Below, piece after piece: positions 3,742-64,000 of a stretch of 64,000 nucleotides of DNA. The translations under genes and the position numbers were made by a program. Each line of letters opens with the position of its first letter. The first letter of the stretch is position 1. The stretch is from assembly GCF_056746865.1 (NCBI RefSeq), contig NZ_CM163382.1; one strand, written 5' to 3'. Under the pieces are notes generated by a model. The model did no database searches and had not been told where the DNA came from. It was given only the letters and a program-made list of their open reading frames with translations.

Positions 3742-4083
3742 ACCGCAGTTTTAGTGTTGTAAGCAGACCAGTGTTGTTGCGCCTTGCTGCCAACGAAATT
3801 TAACTGCTCATCAAGTTTCAAAGATAAGGGCAACATCAGCGTGAACGACTGGCGTAGATGTTATCCGCCGGGGCGAAAACATTTTTAATGTCCGTATGAC
3901 GGTATTGATGCCGATTTTCAGTGTTCATGGGTATCACGGACACCTGCGCCGTTATGTGCCATTTCAACGATCTGCTCCTTAACGCCGGGTTTCCTGACTT
4001 CACCAAGAGTAAGTGAGCTGGAAAACATGTTTTACATGAGCGACAACGGAAACGCTCATCTCGGGAACGTGTTCTTAACGGTT

Positions 4084-4170
4084 AGACTGGCCCCCCTGAA
4101 TCACCTGCAGTTGAAGGACAGTAACAGGTTAAGTGATAACAGATGTCTGGAAATATAGAGGTAAATCCAA
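4084..4170. mobile_element. Miniature IS2 remnant: IS2 left and right terminal repeats with almost all internal sequence deleted
   Basis: tagactggcccccctgaatcacc matches IS2 left end; gttaagtgataacagatgtctggaaatatagaggtaaatcca matches IS2 right end; only about 20 bp between them. Confidence 0.55.
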
Positions 4171-4435
4171 GGAAGTGCCACTTTTCATCCGTTGTTGACA
4201 ATACAGCAAAACTTGATGCTATTCGTACGCCCACAATGGAATGTGGATTCAAACTGAATATTCCGTTTGTTGATATGAGTGATTTGGGCAACGGTGGCAA
4301 CAAATAACTTTATACAGGAGCTGACGGTGTTTTCCTGATCATGCCGCCCATATTTTCTTCGGAGGTCGGGGACTTTCAATACCTTCCCCCGACACTCTAT
4401 GACTTCACAAGATTGTCTCCATGACTGCTATGTGC

Positions 4436-5314
4436 CTACAGATGTTGCTCTCTGGTTGTTGTACTAGTCGGGAGATCCTGTGGATCGACATTTTCCTTCG
4501 CGTGAGCATTGATGCTGGAAGCGGTAAACGTCAGGATGAATACAACCGTGAATAAGATAACAATCGTTGGTGCTGGTGCGCTGTCTATAAAAAAGGAGAG
4601 CCATACACCAGTCATTGAGACCATTACCGATATACCGAGCGCCAGCAGGAGCGCAATATGAAAGCGTTGCGTCAGGAGTACCGCAATGGCGCCAGGCGCA
4701 ATGAGCAGAGAAATGGAGAGAATGATACCTACCGCTTTCAGCGTCGCCACAATGGTCAGAGAGACCATGCACAGCAGCCCATAATGCAGCCATCTCGTAT
4801 GCAAACCGCTTACCTGCGCCTGTTGATAATCAAAGCTGAACAGCAAAAAATCCCGCCATTTTACGCTAATAACAAGTGTAACCAGCCCGGCAATAATCAC
4901 CGTCTGGATTATATCGCCGATGGTTACCCCGAGCATGTCGCCGAAAAGAATATGGTCAAGATGTACGTCGGGTTTGACTGCAATATACAAGATCAGACCT
5001 GCGGCAAACATGCCAGAAAAAACAATCCCCATCACTGTATCTTGCTTGATTCGGCTGTTGTCTTTCAGGTATCCCGTCGCCACCGCGCAGAATACTCCGG
5101 CGACGAATGCTCCTCCCGCCAGAGGAAAACCCAGTATCCACGCAAGCACGATACCAGGAAAAACCGCATGACTCATCGCGTCTCCCATCAGTGCCCAACC
5201 TTTCAGGACCAGAAAGACCGACAGCAGCGCACAGGGTATGGAAACTACCAGTGAAATCAGCAGTGCGTGACTCATAAAGGTGAACTGCAGTGGCTCCAGT
5301 AATAATGCCATCAT
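4436..5314 (-). CDS. sitD: Iron/manganese ABC transporter permease SitD
   Basis: 292-aa polytopic membrane protein; last gene of four-gene operon with overlapping stop/start codons. Confidence 0.85.
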   Translation of the reverse strand: MMALLLEPLQFTFMSHALLISLVVSIPCALLSVFLVLKGWALMGDAMSHAVFPGIVLAWILGFPLAGGAFVAGVFCAVATGYLKDNSRIKQDTVMGIVFSGMFAAGLILYIAVKPDVHLDHILFGDMLGVTIGDIIQTVIIAGLVTLVISVKWRDFLLFSFDYQQAQVSGLHTRWLHYGLLCMVSLTIVATLKAVGIILSISLLIAPGAIAVLLTQRFHIALLLALGISVMVSMTGVWLSFFIDSAPAPTIVILFTVVFILTFTASSINAHAKENVDPQDLPTSTTTREQHL

Positions 5315-6168
5315 GAGCGATCCTCCAGCACCTTATGCGCACGCTGACGATTTGCCAAAAGCCCATGGGTGGGTGCAAAGACAAATGCTAAAAGAAACAG
5401 CAGTGTCTGCGCCACCACGATGATTCCACCTGTCGCTCCGTCCAGAAAGTAACTGACCCACGCGCCGAGGAAACTGGTTACACTGCCAATAGTTACAGCA
5501 ATCACGAGCAGGCGGGGAAAACGATCGGTTAACAACCATGCTGTTGCGCCAGGGGTCACTACCAGACAGATCACCAGAAAAGCCCCAACCGTTTGCAATG
5601 CTGCAACGGTCGATACCGCCAGCAGTGTGAAGAAGAGGATTTTTAATCTTCCTGGATATAATCCAATAGCACGGGCGTGATTTTCGTCGAAAAAGGTCAC
5701 CATAAGATCTTTCCATTTGAAAAAGAGCACTATGACTGAGACAATGCCAATGATAGTGAGTTGCAGGATATCCGCCGGAGCGATTGCCAGAATATTGCCC
5801 AGGACGATGGTCTGAATATTTACGGATGTCGGGTTTAATGACACCATAAACAGCCCCAGGCCAAAAAAGGACGAGAAGATCAGGCCGATGATGGCATCTT
5901 CTTTTAAGCGAGTGCGTTGGTTAAGAAACAGCATGCTGCCCGCAGCCAGTCCACCGGAAAAGAAGGCCCCCAGAGAAAACGGAAGCCCCAGCATATATGC
6001 CCCCGCAACACCCGGGACGATAGAGTGCGACAGCGCATCGCCAATCAGCGACCAGCCTTTTAGCATCAGATAGCATGACAGGAAAGCGCAGAGACCGCCG
6101 ACCATCGCCGCGACCCACATCGCATTGAGCATATATTCATAGCTGAAGGGTTCCAGTAGCACGTTCAT
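5311..6168 (-). CDS. sitC: Iron/manganese ABC transporter permease SitC
   Basis: 285-aa hydrophobic permease; 4-bp overlap with sitD and sitB. Confidence 0.85.
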
Positions 6169-6992
6169 CTTTCTTCCCTCTGCACCGCTGATGGTCGATA
6201 AGCCACAAAGGGGCGTTCATCGTCAGTAATAATGCTTTCTTCCGAGCCTTTAAGTGTGACATGGCGTAGTACGCCGCTAAAAGCCAGCTCCAGGTTCTCG
6301 GCTGTAAAAGTGGTGTCTGTCGGCCCGCTTGCCAGGACGGTGCCTTTGACCATGACCGTATAATCGCAAAATGTCGTGACGGATCCGAGATTGTGCGTTG
6401 AGACAAGCATCGTTTTGCCTTCCGCGCGTAACTCCCTCAACAGGCTGATGATTTTGGCTTCGGTTTTCACATCAACGCCGGTAAAAGGTTCATCCAGCAG
6501 GATCACATCACCCTGCTGTGCAATCGCTCTCGCCAGAAAGACGCGTTTCTTTTGTCCACCGGAAAGCTCGCCGATTTGTCGATGGCGAAAATCTACCATA
6601 TCGACACGTTCCAGCGCATCGGTGACAACCTGACGATCCCTCTTATTGGCTATACGCAACATACCCATATGCCCATAGCGGCCCATCATCACCACATCTT
6701 CCACCAGTACAGGAAAGGACCAGTCCACTTCTTCTGACTGCGGGACGTAGGCAATCAGGTTTTTCTGCAGAGCCTGCCGCGTGGGAATACCCAGAACAGA
6801 TATCTTTCCGGTAGTCAGACGCACGAATCCCATAATCGCTTTAAATAACGTCGATTTTCCGGAACCGTTTACCCCAACCAGAGCGGCAATAGATCCGCCT
6901 GGTACTGTGAAGGATGCATCGCGCAGTGCTGTGTGCCCGTTACGCCAGGTGACAGTAACGCCATTAACGACAATACCCGCAGATTGCATCAT
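6165..6992 (-). CDS. sitB: Iron/manganese ABC transporter ATP-binding protein SitB
   Basis: Walker [10 protein letters not shown] and ABC signature LSGGQKKR in translation. Confidence 0.9.
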
Positions 6993-7906
6993 TACTTCTC
7001 CCTTTTCCCGGCTTTAATTCCCTGCACCAGCGTACTGGTAGTAACCTTCAGAAGGTCGATATACGTAGGTACCGGGCCGTTTTCTGTGCTCAGGGAATCG
7101 ACATAGAGCACACCGCCGTAGTGTGCGCCGGTTTCACGCGCAACCTGACGCGCTGGTTTATCGGAAACCGTACTCTCACTAAATACCGCTGGGATATTAT
7201 TTTTCTTCACTATATCAACCACTTTACGTACCTGCTGGGGTGTTCCTTGTTGATCGGCATTTATCGGCCACAGATAAAGCTCTTTTAGCCCCAAATCGCG
7301 TGCGAGATAAGAAAAAGCCCCTTCACTGGTGACCATCCATCTTTTATTCTCAGGGAGTTCAGCAATCTGCTTACGCAGGGGGGCAAGGGTTTGGGTAATC
7401 TTGGCTTTATAAGTATCGGCATTACGTTGGTATGTTTTTGCATTTGCCGGATCGTATTTTATCAACGCATCACGAATATTATCGACGTAAATCAAAGCAT
7501 TATCTGGTGACATCCAGGCATGAGGGTTAGGTTTTCCCTCGTAGGGGCCTTCGGTGATCCCTACTGGCGTCACACCCGAAGAGACAATCACTTCTGGAAC
7601 ACCATTGAGATGCTGGTAAAAGCGCTGGAACCACAATTCCAGATTCATTCCATTGGCGAGAATCAGTTGTGCCCCCTGCGCACGTTTAATATCGCCAGGG
7701 GTAGGCTGATACTCATGAATTTCCGCACCGGGCTTGGTTATGGATGAGACTTCTGCAACATCTCCAGCCACGTTTTTGGCCATATCTGCGATGATGGTAA
7801 ATGTTGTAATGACCTTGAATTTTTCAGTTGCACTCGCCTGAAATGCGATCGAGCAGGTGAGGGCGAGGAACCCCAAGAGCATGGTTAATTTTTTTATTGA
7901 GTGCAT
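6992..7906 (-). CDS. sitA: Periplasmic metal-binding protein SitA
   Basis: 304 aa with N-terminal signal peptide; first gene of operon; start overlaps sitB. Confidence 0.85.
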
Positions 7907-13777: not shown

Positions 13778-14116
13778 TAATTACACTGTGGGTTGACGCC
13801 GGAAGAATCAGAGAACAGATACCGTTCTTACTGTAAAACGTGGCTAATATTAATTGAGCACTGCAGTGTTCAGAGCACAAAGAAGAAAAAAGATGTGTGC
13901 GAATGCCTGTAATGTGTTAAAAGAATGTTCCGCGTTTCCGGTACGCTTTTCGTAACTAACAATGCAGGGTGACGTAACGCTGGTTGTGCCGGAAACGCGT
14001 CCCTCCCCCTATCTTTCCTGTTTGGATTTGCCCCTATATTTCTGGATTATCCGACAAAACCGGCGTGAAGTATTACTCTCGTCGCCCAGCACCATAAGGA
14101 TAACGCCCATAAAATC

Positions 14117-18809: not shown

Positions 18810-20897
18810 TCAGAACTGATAGTTCAGCGACATCCAGTAATTTCTCTCAGGTATCACATAACCCGTTGTCGATGCCCCCGTCTGGAAGTAATCACCCGCA
18901 TAAAGCGTACCACTGCCGGCACGATACAGACTTACGTCACTGTAATCCTTGTTAAGCACATTATTCACCGCTGCATTCAGCATCAGTGCATCCGTCACTT
19001 TCCACGACATGCCCGCATCCAGTACCGTCCAGGCTTTCAGATATTCACCTTTCTCATCATACACTTTCTTCTGTACAGCTGAGAGTGACGAATAATTCTG
19101 GGTGAAACGTGGCGTTTTCCCGCGGTAACGGGCACCCAGCCATGATGTCACCTCTTCAGTAATCTGCCAGTTCAGTTTCGCATTCACCATATGCTCAGGG
19201 GTGTAACTCAGTGGTGCACCTTTATTATCCCCATCCCGTTGTTCACTCTGCGTCCAGGTATAATTCAGAGACAGAGTCACATCCTCTGACAACAGAGGCA
19301 GTGTGCCGGCAAATTCCACGCCCTGAGTCCTAGCCTTTCCGCTGTTTGTGTAGCTGCGGGTATTATCATCAATGGAATAAGATACGATCTTGTTGGAGAA
19401 TTCTGTCATAAAGCCCGTGATATTGGCGTTCAGACCGGCATGATTATCGTAATACACGCCCGCTTCATAACTGACACTCTCCTCCGGCTTCAGGTCCGGG
19501 TTACCGAGAAGATTCGTACGCCCCTGACCGGACACACCGCTGATCCCCTTATGTAACTGCCCCATGCTGGGCGCCTTATATCCCGTGGTCACCCCACCTT
19601 TCAGCGTCCACGCATCAGTCACATCCCAGACCATATATGCCCGGGGACTGAAGTGTCCTCCGAACACCTCATAGCGTTCATAGCGGCTACCCGCAGTCAG
19701 TGCAAATGCATCCGTGATATACCACTCATCCTCAACAAATGCCGACCAGCTTTTCTGACGGAAGGTTTCACCAGTACTGGCGAGAACAACCCCGTCTTTC
19801 ATGGAGGAGTTCTGATACTCACCACCGACGGTAACCTTGTGTGATTCCCCCAGAGGTGCAAACAGTAATGAGCTCAGGATAAGATTCGACTCCTTAAGCT
19901 CCCTCGGCTGGCCGGCAAGCCCCCATTTATCACGCTGCAGTACGCTACGTACAAGCTGACGGCCTTTATTTTCCGTCTCATTCCAGTTCAGAGATGACTT
20001 CCAGGCTCCGAAGGTGAATGTATGATCATAGCCTGCTGAAATTTTATTACGCTCATAGCGCAGGGTGCGATCATAACCGCCCGTCAGACTGCCCAGCTGG
20101 CCATCTCGGTTATCATAACGCTGCCGGGCGATATCCATATCAATCCAGAGTACATCCTTGTCCGTCGCTTTCCAGTCAAGACGACCACCTGCATTATAAT
20201 TCTGTGATTCCGTGGGATAAGGGATACGCGTAGCTGAGGTGTCGCTCAGTGATGTGACCGATGAGCCCTGACGCTGCTGTGTGCTGCCACGTACCTGAAG
20301 GCTGAGTGAATCATCCACAAGGGGACCGCTGCTCCAGAAATTAAACTGGCTGCTGTTCCCCCATTTGTTACTTTCCTGCAGGTTCAGCCCGGCATTAACC
20401 GAAGAGCGCCATTTGTCTGCATTCTTTTTGGTGATGATATTCACCACGCCCCCCATGGCATCAGAGCCGTACAGAGTGGACATGGGGCCCCTGATAATCT
20501 CAATACGTTCGATGGCGGCCAGAGGTGGCATAAAACCCGTATTCATGGCAGCATAACCGTTTGGGGTTACGTCACTGCTCCCGCCCTGACGGACACCATC
20601 GATCAGTATCAGCGTATAACTGGCAGGCATTCCGCGGATGCTGATTTCGAGCCCACCTGTTTTACCCGTACCGCTTTCAACATCCACCCCCTCTACGGAT
20701 CTCAGTGCCTCCCCCAGATCATGATACTGGCTGGATCGCAAATCCTCCTGGCTGATCACTGAAACACTCGCAGCTGCACTGGTTAATTTTTTTTCATAGC
20801 CAGACGCCGTGACTACCATCACATCTTCCGCAGCCATACTGCTGACTGAAAACCCGAGACAAGGGATGGCTACTGAAGCCAGAGTGGTTACTCGCAT
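18810..20897 (-). CDS. iha: TonB-dependent siderophore receptor/adhesin, Iha-like (IrgA homologue)
   Basis: 695 aa with signal peptide, TonB-box-like EDVMVVTAS, plug plus beta-barrel, C-terminal aromatic residue; size and sequence recalled as Iha. Confidence 0.6.
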   Translation of the reverse strand: MRVTTLASVAIPCLGFSVSSMAAEDVMVVTASGYEKKLTSAAASVSVISQEDLRSSQYHDLGEALRSVEGVDVESGTGKTGGLEISIRGMPASYTLILIDGVRQGGSSDVTPNGYAAMNTGFMPPLAAIERIEIIRGPMSTLYGSDAMGGVVNIITKKNADKWRSSVNAGLNLQESNKWGNSSQFNFWSSGPLVDDSLSLQVRGSTQQRQGSSVTSLSDTSATRIPYPTESQNYNAGGRLDWKATDKDVLWIDMDIARQRYDNRDGQLGSLTGGYDRTLRYERNKISAGYDHTFTFGAWKSSLNWNETENKGRQLVRSVLQRDKWGLAGQPRELKESNLILSSLLFAPLGESHKVTVGGEYQNSSMKDGVVLASTGETFRQKSWSAFVEDEWYITDAFALTAGSRYERYEVFGGHFSPRAYMVWDVTDAWTLKGGVTTGYKAPSMGQLHKGISGVSGQGRTNLLGNPDLKPEESVSYEAGVYYDNHAGLNANITGFMTEFSNKIVSYSIDDNTRSYTNSGKARTQGVEFAGTLPLLSEDVTLSLNYTWTQSEQRDGDNKGAPLSYTPEHMVNAKLNWQITEEVTSWLGARYRGKTPRFTQNYSSLSAVQKKVYDEKGEYLKAWTVLDAGMSWKVTDALMLNAAVNNVLNKDYSDVSLYRAGSGTLYAGDYFQTGASTTGYVIPERNYWMSLNYQF

Positions 20898-61833: not shown

Positions 61834-62436
61834 TCATGAAAATACGCATACGCCGCGCAGTACCCGCTCTCTGAAGCGCAGATACCTCCCCTTATCAATG
61901 AGATGTCCCATATGGAGGTAAACCGGTTTACCGTCCAGCATTTCTTTTTCAAATTCGAACAGGTTTGATATGACCTGTCTGATGACATCTTCTGTAACCC
62001 AGTTAAGGAAAACTTTCCCTGCCCGTGGCGTTTTTTTACCGGTTCTTCCTCCCAGACGAACCTGCCAGAACTCCTGCGGCTGACGCTGCCAGGCAAGGGT
62101 GGGACATGCCAGAACACATTCTCCGCATCCGATACAGAGCGACTCTTCCTTTGTGGCTTTGCCGTTCTTTAATGACAGGCACCCCACGGCGTGGTGCGCA
62201 CAGGCTTTCACACAGGCGCCACATCCGATGCAACGTTCTGCCGTAAAACGCATTCTGGCCACACCAATAATGCCAAAGTCTGACATGGAGGCTTTGGCAC
62301 AGTCATTCGGACACCCGGCAATGACGGTTTTCAGGTGATAGGCGCTGGGATAAATCAGCTTTTCCAGCCGCCGGGATAAACCTGTGGTGTCGGTATTGGC
62401 TTTCTGGCAAATCCGGTTACTATCGCCTGCATGGTG
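61834..62436 (-). pseudogene. asrC: Anaerobic sulfite reductase subunit C remnant; N-terminal third missing, 3' end cut by the IS3-family copy
   Basis: [14 protein letters not shown]...CPNDC siroheme motif and two ferredoxin-type CIGCG(A/E)CV motifs; frame opens only about 10 codons upstream of RICQ; ends VLRGV at the IS boundary. Confidence 0.55.
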
Positions 62437-63035
62437 CTGATATCTTCAAATGTCAGTGCTGCCAGATGGTCAGTGACCCGCCCGGTACGGTAACGTTCAT
62501 CCGCCTCGCCTTCATCCAGGGTCAGAATGAGATTGTGGTGCCGGTGCCAGTTCGCCATCTCCTGCCTGTACAGCACACATTCCCGGTTTCTGTAACCAAA
62601 AATTATGTCAAGCTGGTTGATTTCCTGCGGGTTTTCGACGAAATAGCGCATTAACCCTTTGACTGGCGCAACGCCAGTACCGCCGGCAATGACCACCAGA
62701 GATTTGTGGCGGAAGGCATCAACAGGATAGCCGTTACCATAACAGCCACGAAGCCATACCCTGTCGCCTTCACGGAGGGTAAAAAGCGCGCCGGTCACTT
62801 TGCCGACATTGCGGATAAGCAGGTCTGCCCAGCCCTCTCCGCAGTCAGAAACAGAAATGGGCGCCTCCCCGACACATGGCAGGGAGACTTCGACAAACTG
62901 TCCCCAGCGAGCCGGAAAATCGATTTCCACACGGAAATTCCACTCCTGTGGTGTATGACGGGTGATGGAAATAATGCGGTATGCAGCAGGCAAAAGGCTG
63001 TGCTTTTCTTTATCGTGACAGGAACACGTTGACAC
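62355..63035 (-). pseudogene. asrB: Anaerobic sulfite reductase subunit B remnant; C-terminal Fe-S domain missing
   Basis: Flavin/NAD-binding region present (GGTGVAPV) but ORF ends without the cysteine cluster; asrC-like frame begins in the overlap. Confidence 0.55.
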
Positions 63036-63038
63036 AGG

Positions 63039-63922
63039 TTATGCCTCCCCGGAGAGTGCCTGCCGGACAGCGGCAGTCATTTTATTGATAATACGTGAGA
63101 ATTTAATGTACTGAGGACAACGGTCATCGCAGCGTCCGCAGCCCACGCACATATGCTCAGTACCATTGCGGGCTTTGTAATCATTGACTTTATGAAGTGC
63201 ACGGTAACGTAAACGTTCTCCCGCAGACTGGCGAAAACGGTGTCCGCCGGCCATATCGCTGAAACCCGGTACCATACAGCTGGCCCACTGGCGACGGCGT
63301 TCACCGCGCTGAGGATTTTCGTCATAAGCCACATCAAAAACGCTGTAGCAGGTACAGGTCGGACACCCGGTTGTGCAGCGCCCGCAACCAATACAGCGAC
63401 TGTTGTACTCATCCCAGAGCGGATGATTGATAATAATGTCGCGAACTTTTTGGGGGGACTGACAGATTTTTTCAGGGAGGGTAACCTGCTCCAGGTTTTC
63501 GCTGACGAAGACAGGCTCATATTCCGTGCTCTGTCCCATTCCCTGTAAGGCTTCTTCAAAAAAAGCATCCCTGATAAAAACACTGGCACCGTCATCACTG
63601 AAACGCATTGCCGCGCTGTAATTATCGGTTTTATTGCTCCCCATGGAGACACAGAAGCAGTTTTCAAAACTTTGCGGACACTCAATCAGCACAAAGCGAA
63701 TATGGTCGCGCAGTCGCTGATAACTGTAATCAGAATTATTCCCGTTTGATAAATACATATAATCCAGCCGCGACATGGCATTAATGTCACAGGCGCGGGC
63801 AAATATCAGTACTGGTGTGGTATCCGTCTCCGCAATCTGGATAGTGTCTTTATTAAAATAAAAGAGCGTCTCTGTTATTGGTGAAATAACCGTACTAGGT
63901 GACATGTGGGATTTCTCCTGCC
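63039..63922 (-). pseudogene. asrA: Anaerobic sulfite reductase subunit A remnant, 5'-truncated by IS2
   Basis: Two 4Fe-4S motifs ([26 protein letters not shown]); the apparent N-terminus MITDVWKY is encoded by IS2 end sequence. Confidence 0.55.
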
Positions 63923-64000
63923 TGGATTTGCCCCTATATTTCCAGACATCTGTTATCACTTAACCCATTACTGGTCCGCTGCCGCAGATATTCCCGTGGC
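63923..64000 (-). mobile_element. IS2 right end, element continues beyond the window
   Basis: tggatttgcccctatatttccagacatctgttatcacttaacccattac is the reverse complement of the IS2 right terminus and orfB 3' end. Confidence 0.65.

Follow-up and report, generated by a model that had tools for sequence, protein, structure and literature searches.

Does the distal end of this stretch of DNA still encode a working anaerobic sulfite reductase and, if not, how was the operon lost? The window (the whole 64,000-nucleotide stretch analysed here) carries three consecutive ORFs on the minus strand of its last 2.2 kb. The first (63039-63959) has the 4Fe-4S dicluster domain typical of AsrA, the next (62355-63035) has an oxidoreductase NAD-binding domain, and the last (61834-62286) has two ferredoxin-type cluster motifs. 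BLASTN comparison with intact E. coli asrABC demonstrates that minus-strand positions 61849-63922 are the remnant of an asrA-asrB-asrC module. In this report, we conclude, with a probability that we put at about 95%, that this is a dead accessory copy of asrABC on an IS-rich E. coli island, and that it bears three independent lesions, each sufficient to inactivate it. The remnant is already known insofar as it is annotated as pseudogenes in three public genomes.

The module of strain MSI001 (L001; asrA 3841-4884, asrB 4888-5706, asrC 5717-6727) served as the alignment reference; its intact products are 347 (AsrA), 272 (AsrB) and 336 (AsrC) amino acids long. The search returned two collinear blocks. 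Window 63922..62419 corresponds to L001 4001..5504 at 97.5% identity, and window 62420..61849 to L001 6066..6637 at 96.9% identity. On the minus strand of the window, the asrA remnant therefore occupies 63039..63922 (L001 4001-4884), codons 1-205 of asrB occupy 62421..63035 (L001 4888-5504), and codons 118-307 of asrC, together with 2 nt of codon 117, occupy 61849..62420 (L001 6066-6637). The single-strand order asrA-asrB-asrC is preserved and the asrA-asrB spacer is still present; the asrB-asrC spacer lies inside a deletion. In total, 160 + 561 + 90 nt of the 2887-nt module are missing. The original prediction, made from the sequence of the window alone, had described an asrABC operon broken in three places, and this alignment put all three breakpoints where it had claimed them to be. 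Neither asrB nor asrC is full-length with point differences only; both are truncated.

Gene identity and extent were tested with NCBIfam equivalog models, and lost domains were located by a Pfam scan of the intact proteins. The AsrA remnant passes the TIGR02910 cut-off of 323.15 with 482.1 bits (model positions 55-333 of 334). The AsrB remnant scores 295.7 bits against TIGR02911 (cut-off 288.6), covering only positions 1-197 of 261. Because it is truncated, the AsrC remnant falls just below the TIGR02912 cut-off (306.5 versus 324.1 bits; positions 109-300 of 314). The missing pieces, namely the asrA 5' end with its upstream DNA, the deleted 561 bp and the asrC 3' end with its downstream DNA, have no match elsewhere in the window, and strain EC332, which carries the identical locus, has asr sequences in one place only in its genome. 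The remnant fails every completeness test and thus is a set of pseudogenes. No complete Asr subunit can be encoded by the window copy, and its sulfite-to-sulfide activity is predicted, from these truncations, to be absent.

The upstream lesion removed the first 160 nt of asrA (53 codons and 1 nt), and residues 1-53 are missing from AsrA; codons 55-347 and the stop codon are kept, with no internal stops. As originally claimed, the 5' end gives way to IS2 at 63922/63923: the IS2 terminal sequence TGGATTTGCCCCTATATTTCCAGAC is matched exactly at 63923. This right terminal end (IRR side) of the element occupies 63923..64000 on the minus strand and runs off the window, its transposase reading towards asrA. 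In EC332, the IS2 is complete at 1331 bp (annotated as "IS3-like element IS2 family transposase") and is flanked by CTGCC on the asrA side and by GCAGA on the other. A simple insertion of IS2 is expected to give a 5-bp target duplication. There is none here, which suggests that a rearrangement followed the insertion. The IS2 right end stands in place of the asrA promoter region and the first 53 codons. We propose that, after a simple insertion, the upstream part was removed either in a deletion associated with IS2 or when two IS2 copies recombined.

The internal lesion is a deletion of 561 bp (L001 5505-6065) with its junction at 62419/62420. The BLAST blocks overlap by 2 nt at this point, a GT microhomology, and the junction lies in unique sequence with no IS at it. 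Thus, IS elements are associated with no more than two of the three lesions. The deletion takes AsrB residues 206-272, which span the last part of the NAD-binding domain and the entire 2Fe-2S domain (DHODB_Fe-S_bind, PF10418, residues 235-264 of the intact protein; motif CAVGKCGHC...C). It also takes AsrC residues 1-116, and with them the ferredoxin-like half-domain (NIR_SIR_ferr, PF03460, residues 24-82) and Cys115, which belongs to the C-X5-C part of the siroheme-coupled 4Fe-4S cluster motif. The expectation that a deletion near 62400-62440 had removed the asrB Fe-S domain and the asrC N-terminus was therefore borne out. An illegitimate, non-IS event joined asrB codon 205 to asrC codon 117. 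The fusion is out of frame even though 561 is a multiple of three, because asrB and asrC lie in different frames. Past codon 205, the asrB frame continues for 21 out-of-frame codons in asrC sequence to a stop at 62355, and the asrB-derived ORF (62355..63035) is 226 aa long.

The downstream lesion deprived asrC of its last 90 nt (29 residues and the stop, i.e. residues 308-336); the 190 remaining codons are open. The break, at 61848/61849, agrees with the position of about 61849 given in the original prediction, but the DNA abutting asrC is not the IS3-family element named there. It is the 33-bp outer terminal repeat unit of ISEc12, a member of the IS21 family (61816..61848, plus strand), which ends at 61848 with ...AATACGCA in the plus-strand reading. 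An IS3-family element of 1630 bp (60186..61815, plus strand), with orfA/orfB, a programmed frameshift and the Pfam domains rve and rve_3, is nested in this ISEc12 end. Beyond it lies the ISEc12 body (57675..60185, minus strand; istA 58503-60044, istB downstream), which matches standalone copies and the EC332 annotation. Standalone ISEc12 copies are 2581 bp long, begin with TGCGTATT, end with AATACGCA and have no IS3-family element; their termini read GTTATTGAGTGATC(A/T)CCTTTCATGAAAATACGCA, and 5-bp target duplications were found at three of the four copies examined. In many genomes, the equivalents of 60100-60185 and 61815-61848 are contiguous except for an 18-bp spacer and form one ISEc12 end, which identifies the 33 bp touching asrC as the outer unit of that end. 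The terminal repeat units at 61816-61848 and 60100-60185 equal the standalone left end, and istA and istB are present. A search of the window for IS21-like terminal repeats of the pOkiPb and JNE141411 types found none.

The window ISEc12 shares istA, istB and identical terminal repeat units with the standalone copies. It differs from them in that one 23-bp repeat unit is absent, the IS3-family element is nested 33 bp from the terminus, and the second end is an inverted duplicate of the first arrangement. This duplicate of 60145-61848 lies at 55999..57702 on the minus strand (repeat search: 1704 nt, 100% complementary), is made up of 41 bp of ISEc12 end, the IS3-family element and the 33-bp terminal unit, and replaces the normal ISEc12 right end. 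In EC332, the two copies of the 1704-bp repeat differ by 29 mismatches and 2 indels. The outer flanks of the composite are unrelated (GTCATGG to the left of 55999, TACGCCG to the right of 61848), and there is no 5-bp target duplication. This arrangement suggests that the asrC-side junction, too, was rearranged after the original insertion. The outer end of ISEc12, with its nested IS3-family element, takes the place of the last 29 asrC codons and everything downstream. The related strains 23CRST013 and XDL carry the same composite but lack the asr remnant, other DNA adjoining the composite on that side.

Three other explanations of these junctions were considered, and all of them are unlikely. 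One retains the IS3-family element as the direct cause of the asrC truncation and takes the 33 bp beside asrC to be that element's own inverted repeat. It draws on about 255 E. coli genomes in which this 33-34-bp sequence lies immediately beside the IS3-family element, and on units bounded by such repeats that have moved whole with 5-7-bp duplications. Yet 2581-bp ISEc12 copies that lack the IS3-family element normally terminate in the 33-bp unit, and the IS3-family element has recognizable ends of its own, CCCCCTGTGTCAGCATAGTTGTCGCC and GGCGACAACTACCTTGAAAAACGCCG (CCCCC.../...CGCCG). Among GTDB representative genomes, its 26-nt left end occurs at more than 120 loci in very different bacteria, always with unrelated flanks, and matching right ends with 4-bp duplications lie 1622-1675 bp away. 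These conserved ends, unrelated flanks and 4-bp duplications mark it as an autonomous insertion sequence. In the window, it is bounded on both sides by the 4-bp target duplication TTAT (60182-60185 and 61816-61819). Further, in strain N767 the same element interrupts, as a clean insertion that duplicates ATAA, an ISEc12 end that is intact in all other respects, and RHB15-C23 likewise carries it in such an end with ATAA. We accordingly rejected the notion that the 1704-bp repeat is a single IS3-family element with ISEc12-like inverted repeats, given the standalone ISEc12 copies, the N767 insertion and the ends found in GTDB genomes. Truncation of asrC by the IS3-family element itself is improbable.

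Far less probable is that the breaks arose in assembly or scaffolding at repeated IS copies and that the real operon is intact. Two of the three junctions do lie at repeated elements, and the 100% identity of the two IS3-family copies in the window could be a symptom of repeat collapse. But the internal deletion is in unique sequence, EC332 contains no further asr fragment, and the same three junctions recur, without a single base difference, in three complete genomes that were sequenced independently. The three-lesion allele is 100% identical in these RefSeq genomes (EC332, AR13438 and CM2), which argues that it is not an assembly artefact. The least credible of the three is that the asrB-asrC junction represents a natural fused or shortened variant that is still active. 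The length of the deletion, divisible by three, and the absence of stops from the flanking frames are compatible with such a variant; the difference between the asrB and asrC frames, with 21 out-of-frame codons and then a stop, is not. Such a protein would also lack the AsrB 2Fe-2S motif, the AsrC half-domain and Cys115; the outer ends of asrA and asrC are truncated as well; and all 52 near-full-length E. coli asr alleles retain the deleted 561-bp segment. The reading that we favor thus remains a dead operon with two IS-associated rearrangements and one small deletion.

The surviving sequence is well preserved. Its 689 codons contain no stop codons and no frameshifts, and its dN/dS ratios (Nei-Gojobori) against two intact alleles are 0.072 and 0.086, compared with 0.125 between those two alleles themselves. 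The low ratios and the lack of stops indicate that the divergence of about 3% from the nearest intact allele is allelic variation under purifying selection. Judged by the open frames and this signature of selection, the operon was functional until recently, relative to that 3% divergence, and the structural lesions are recent compared with the allelic divergence. Slow decay by point mutation was considered and rejected, given zero stops and a dN/dS of about 0.08. Among 5426 complete E. coli genomes, none was found to carry an allele with just one or two of these lesions. Other asr remnants, in TUM9757 and a few plasmids, have breakpoints that differ from those of the window allele.

Of the same 5426 genomes, 67 contain asrABC sequences, 21 of the places being on plasmids. 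The module occurs at various chromosomal sites and islands as well as on plasmids, usually beside IS remnants. In a megablast search of these genomes, a related locus, about 560 bp longer, was present in some 50 genomes besides the three with the identical stretch, where it is annotated as asrA, asrB and asrC. This rarity argues that the decayed module is an imported accessory gene set and not a core E. coli pathway. The original prediction had spoken of the loss of an anaerobic respiration trait by IS activity and deletion. Its account of the agents holds, with two IS-associated lesions and one deletion; its mention of trait loss calls for a qualification, as the module is a rare accessory one. 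Intact E. coli modules (the MSI001 and MB06234 chromosomes and the SE11 plasmid NC_011416) are 96-97.5% identical in nucleotide sequence over the retained parts and are likewise embedded among IS110, IS66 and IS3 remnants, but they encode full-length products (347, 272 and 336 aa) and have other flanks.

The window itself is part of an IS-saturated island with a Mn/Fe ABC transporter operon, iha, a PhoX gene, and remnants of an integrative conjugative element (ICE) and a group II intron. In the RefSeq annotation of EC332, the asr pseudogenes ("missing N-terminus" for asrA, "missing C-terminus" for asrB, "missing N-terminus and C-terminus" for asrC) are flanked on one side by an IS2 transposase gene and on the other by a pseudogene labelled "IS3 family transposase". 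The same replacement of gene ends by IS termini without target duplications, in a mosaic of IS pseudogenes, is found in other IS-rich islands of E. coli and Shigella. The remnant does not differ notably from IS-driven pseudogenes of these bacteria and is a typical instance of them; this mode of decay, by IS ends without target duplications and a microhomology deletion, is routine in such islands.

In Salmonella, asrABC reduces sulfite to H2S, and sulfide production is described as setting that genus apart from E. coli (PMC12452934). The remnant shares with the Salmonella enterica operon its gene order and the equivalog-level families TIGR02910, TIGR02911 and TIGR02912. Unlike that operon, the window copy belongs to an accessory island of E. 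coli and has lost both of its ends as well as an internal segment. We found no literature specific to asrABC in E. coli or to H2S-positive E. coli. These data indicate that E. coli occasionally acquires a Salmonella-type sulfite-to-sulfide operon on islands and plasmids, and that in one island lineage the operon was wrecked recently. For annotation, the remnant should not be scored as a capacity for sulfide production. It adds modestly to the record of how accessory metabolic modules turn over and matters little overall.

The IS3-family element next to asrC is more curious than the operon remnant, and its nesting could matter for the study of target choice by insertion sequences. All 12 copies that we inspected (in E. 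coli, Klebsiella and Salmonella) abut IS21-type terminal repeat units, exactly at their inner edge, and at least three different IS21-like repeat types are represented among them. Three of the 12 are nested in a complete ISEc12 end and flanked by an ATAA duplication, namely the window copy, that of N767, and that of plasmid pRHB15-C23_2, the last being a relative only 75% identical. These three insertions are at equivalent ATAA sites, and both orientations occur. Most of the other inspected copies form part of repeat-IS3-repeat units, about 1.7 kb long, that have each moved as a whole. About 255 complete E. coli genomes contain the junction of the ISEc12 terminal unit with the left end of the IS3-family element.

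The duplications around these mini-elements are 5-7 bp, as for ISEc12, whereas the IS3-family element's own are 4 bp. Targeted nesting followed by hitchhiking is a plausible sequence of events, to be read against the small sample of 12 copies. In its fuller form, the proposal is that this enterobacterial IS3-family lineage homes to the inner edge of IS21-family terminal repeats and then travels in repeat-IS3-repeat mini-elements mobilised by the IS21 transposase; we offer this form tentatively, and the odds are against it. A precedent by analogy only is IS1353, an IS3-family element inside IS1326 (IS21 family) in Tn21-type integrons. When plasmids were searched for distant DNA matches, nothing indicated that the element studied here is IS1353-like. 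The IS21-family terminal repeat units are presumably binding sites for IstA. Over its first 52 residues, OrfA shares 42% identity with the ISEc12 IstA N-terminus (pairwise E = 1e-5); of the family members sampled, only the E. coli clade and one further member show this resemblance. Homing could thus use an N-terminal helix-turn-helix of OrfA that resembles the IstA N-terminus.

The ISEc12 copy that adjoins the broken asrABC operon is itself interrupted: an IS3-family element of 1630 bp (window 60186-61815), flanked by the 4-bp duplication TTAT, is nested 33 bp from its terminus, and an inverted copy of the same element lies at window 56032-57661. Every one of the 12 enterobacterial IS3-family copies that were inspected abuts an IS21-type terminal repeat unit on its inner edge. 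In N767, ATAA lies beside the repeat unit and marks the same type of insertion site as that of the window element (loci compared, L012 and L140). A relative on plasmid pRHB15-C23_2, only 75% identical, likewise has ATAA beside the repeat unit. About 255 complete E. coli genomes contain the junction between repeat and IS3-family element.

In five loci from other genomes, the element forms part of a unit of about 1.7 kb, in which it is enclosed between an IS21-type terminal repeat and the opposite repeat of that type. These units have been inserted whole, with flanking duplications of 5-7 bp (GTACG, TCCCC, GCTGAAA, TAAAAA and CATAC) that fit ISEc12 (5 bp) rather than the IS3-family element (4 bp). 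The ISEc12-like length of the duplications thus suggests that the units were mobilised in trans by an IS21-type transposase.

The left end of the IS3-family element, the 26-nt sequence CCCCCTGTGTCAG(C/G)ATAGTTGTCGCC, was matched exactly at more than 120 loci in GTDB representative genomes, in a scan that returned only exact matches and is therefore biased towards conservation. The right end, GGCGACAACTnnCTTGAAAAACnCCG, is almost as invariant, and the DNA just internal to the ends diverges widely. Among the hosts are Pseudoalteromonas, Vibrio, Shewanella, Marinomonas and Geobacter, along with metagenome-assembled genomes (MAGs) of Planctomycetota, Aminicenantes and Myxococcota. Conservation of these ends across phyla to such an extent is unusual. 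At the protein level, residues 1-52 of the IS3-family OrfA (window 60232-60390) and the N-terminus of the ISEc12 IstA (window 59890-60044) share 42% identity by pairwise BLASTP (E = 1e-5), with an MP..PI start and the pattern SHRQI...IS.SVVS common to both. Outside the E. coli clade, just one of the family members sampled, from a symbiont MAG, has this IstA-like N-terminus.

The usual right end of ISEc12 (TGCGTATTACCGTGAAGG...) is missing from the window copy; the left end, repeated in inverted orientation, takes its place, and the switch occurs at a common 13-bp motif, ATCGATGGAGATC. Inverted copies of 1704 bp lie on either side of the ISEc12 body (window 55999-57702 and 60145-61848). They are 100% identical to each other, whereas in EC332, an E. 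coli genome with the identical asr remnant, 29 mismatches and 2 indels separate them, and the asrC-adjacent copy is a pseudogene. The identity in the window reflects either gene conversion in the source strain or collapse of the repeat during assembly. Strains 23CRST013 and XDL share the iha-PhoX-IS5-ISEc12 composite but have no asr remnant. On the right of their second IS3-family copy comes a different IS21-like repeat, and after it an ECs1377-family gene, IS1203 and nanY. This differing DNA indicates that recombination took place at the nested IS3-family copy.

At the other border of the remnant, an ORF of 306 amino acids on the minus strand (window 63039-63959) has a GTG start within the IS2 terminal repeat, in frame with the truncated asrA; a predicted hybrid IS2-AsrA' product is formally possible. 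Two more IS2-like terminal sequences, at window 4145-4169 (minus strand, 2 mismatches) and 14023-14047 (plus strand, 3 mismatches), are candidate partners in a past IS2-IS2 recombination. The island cargo in window 1-54000 comprises a truncated TonB-dependent siderophore receptor (35-1846), a Mn/Fe ABC transporter operon (4436-7906), iha (18810-20897, placed by its position in EC332), a group II intron reverse transcriptase (43359-44600) and PhoX (46890-48869). Several blocks of this region are inverted or relocated relative to EC332. Transposases of IS110, IS630, IS66 and IS21 also occur within it.
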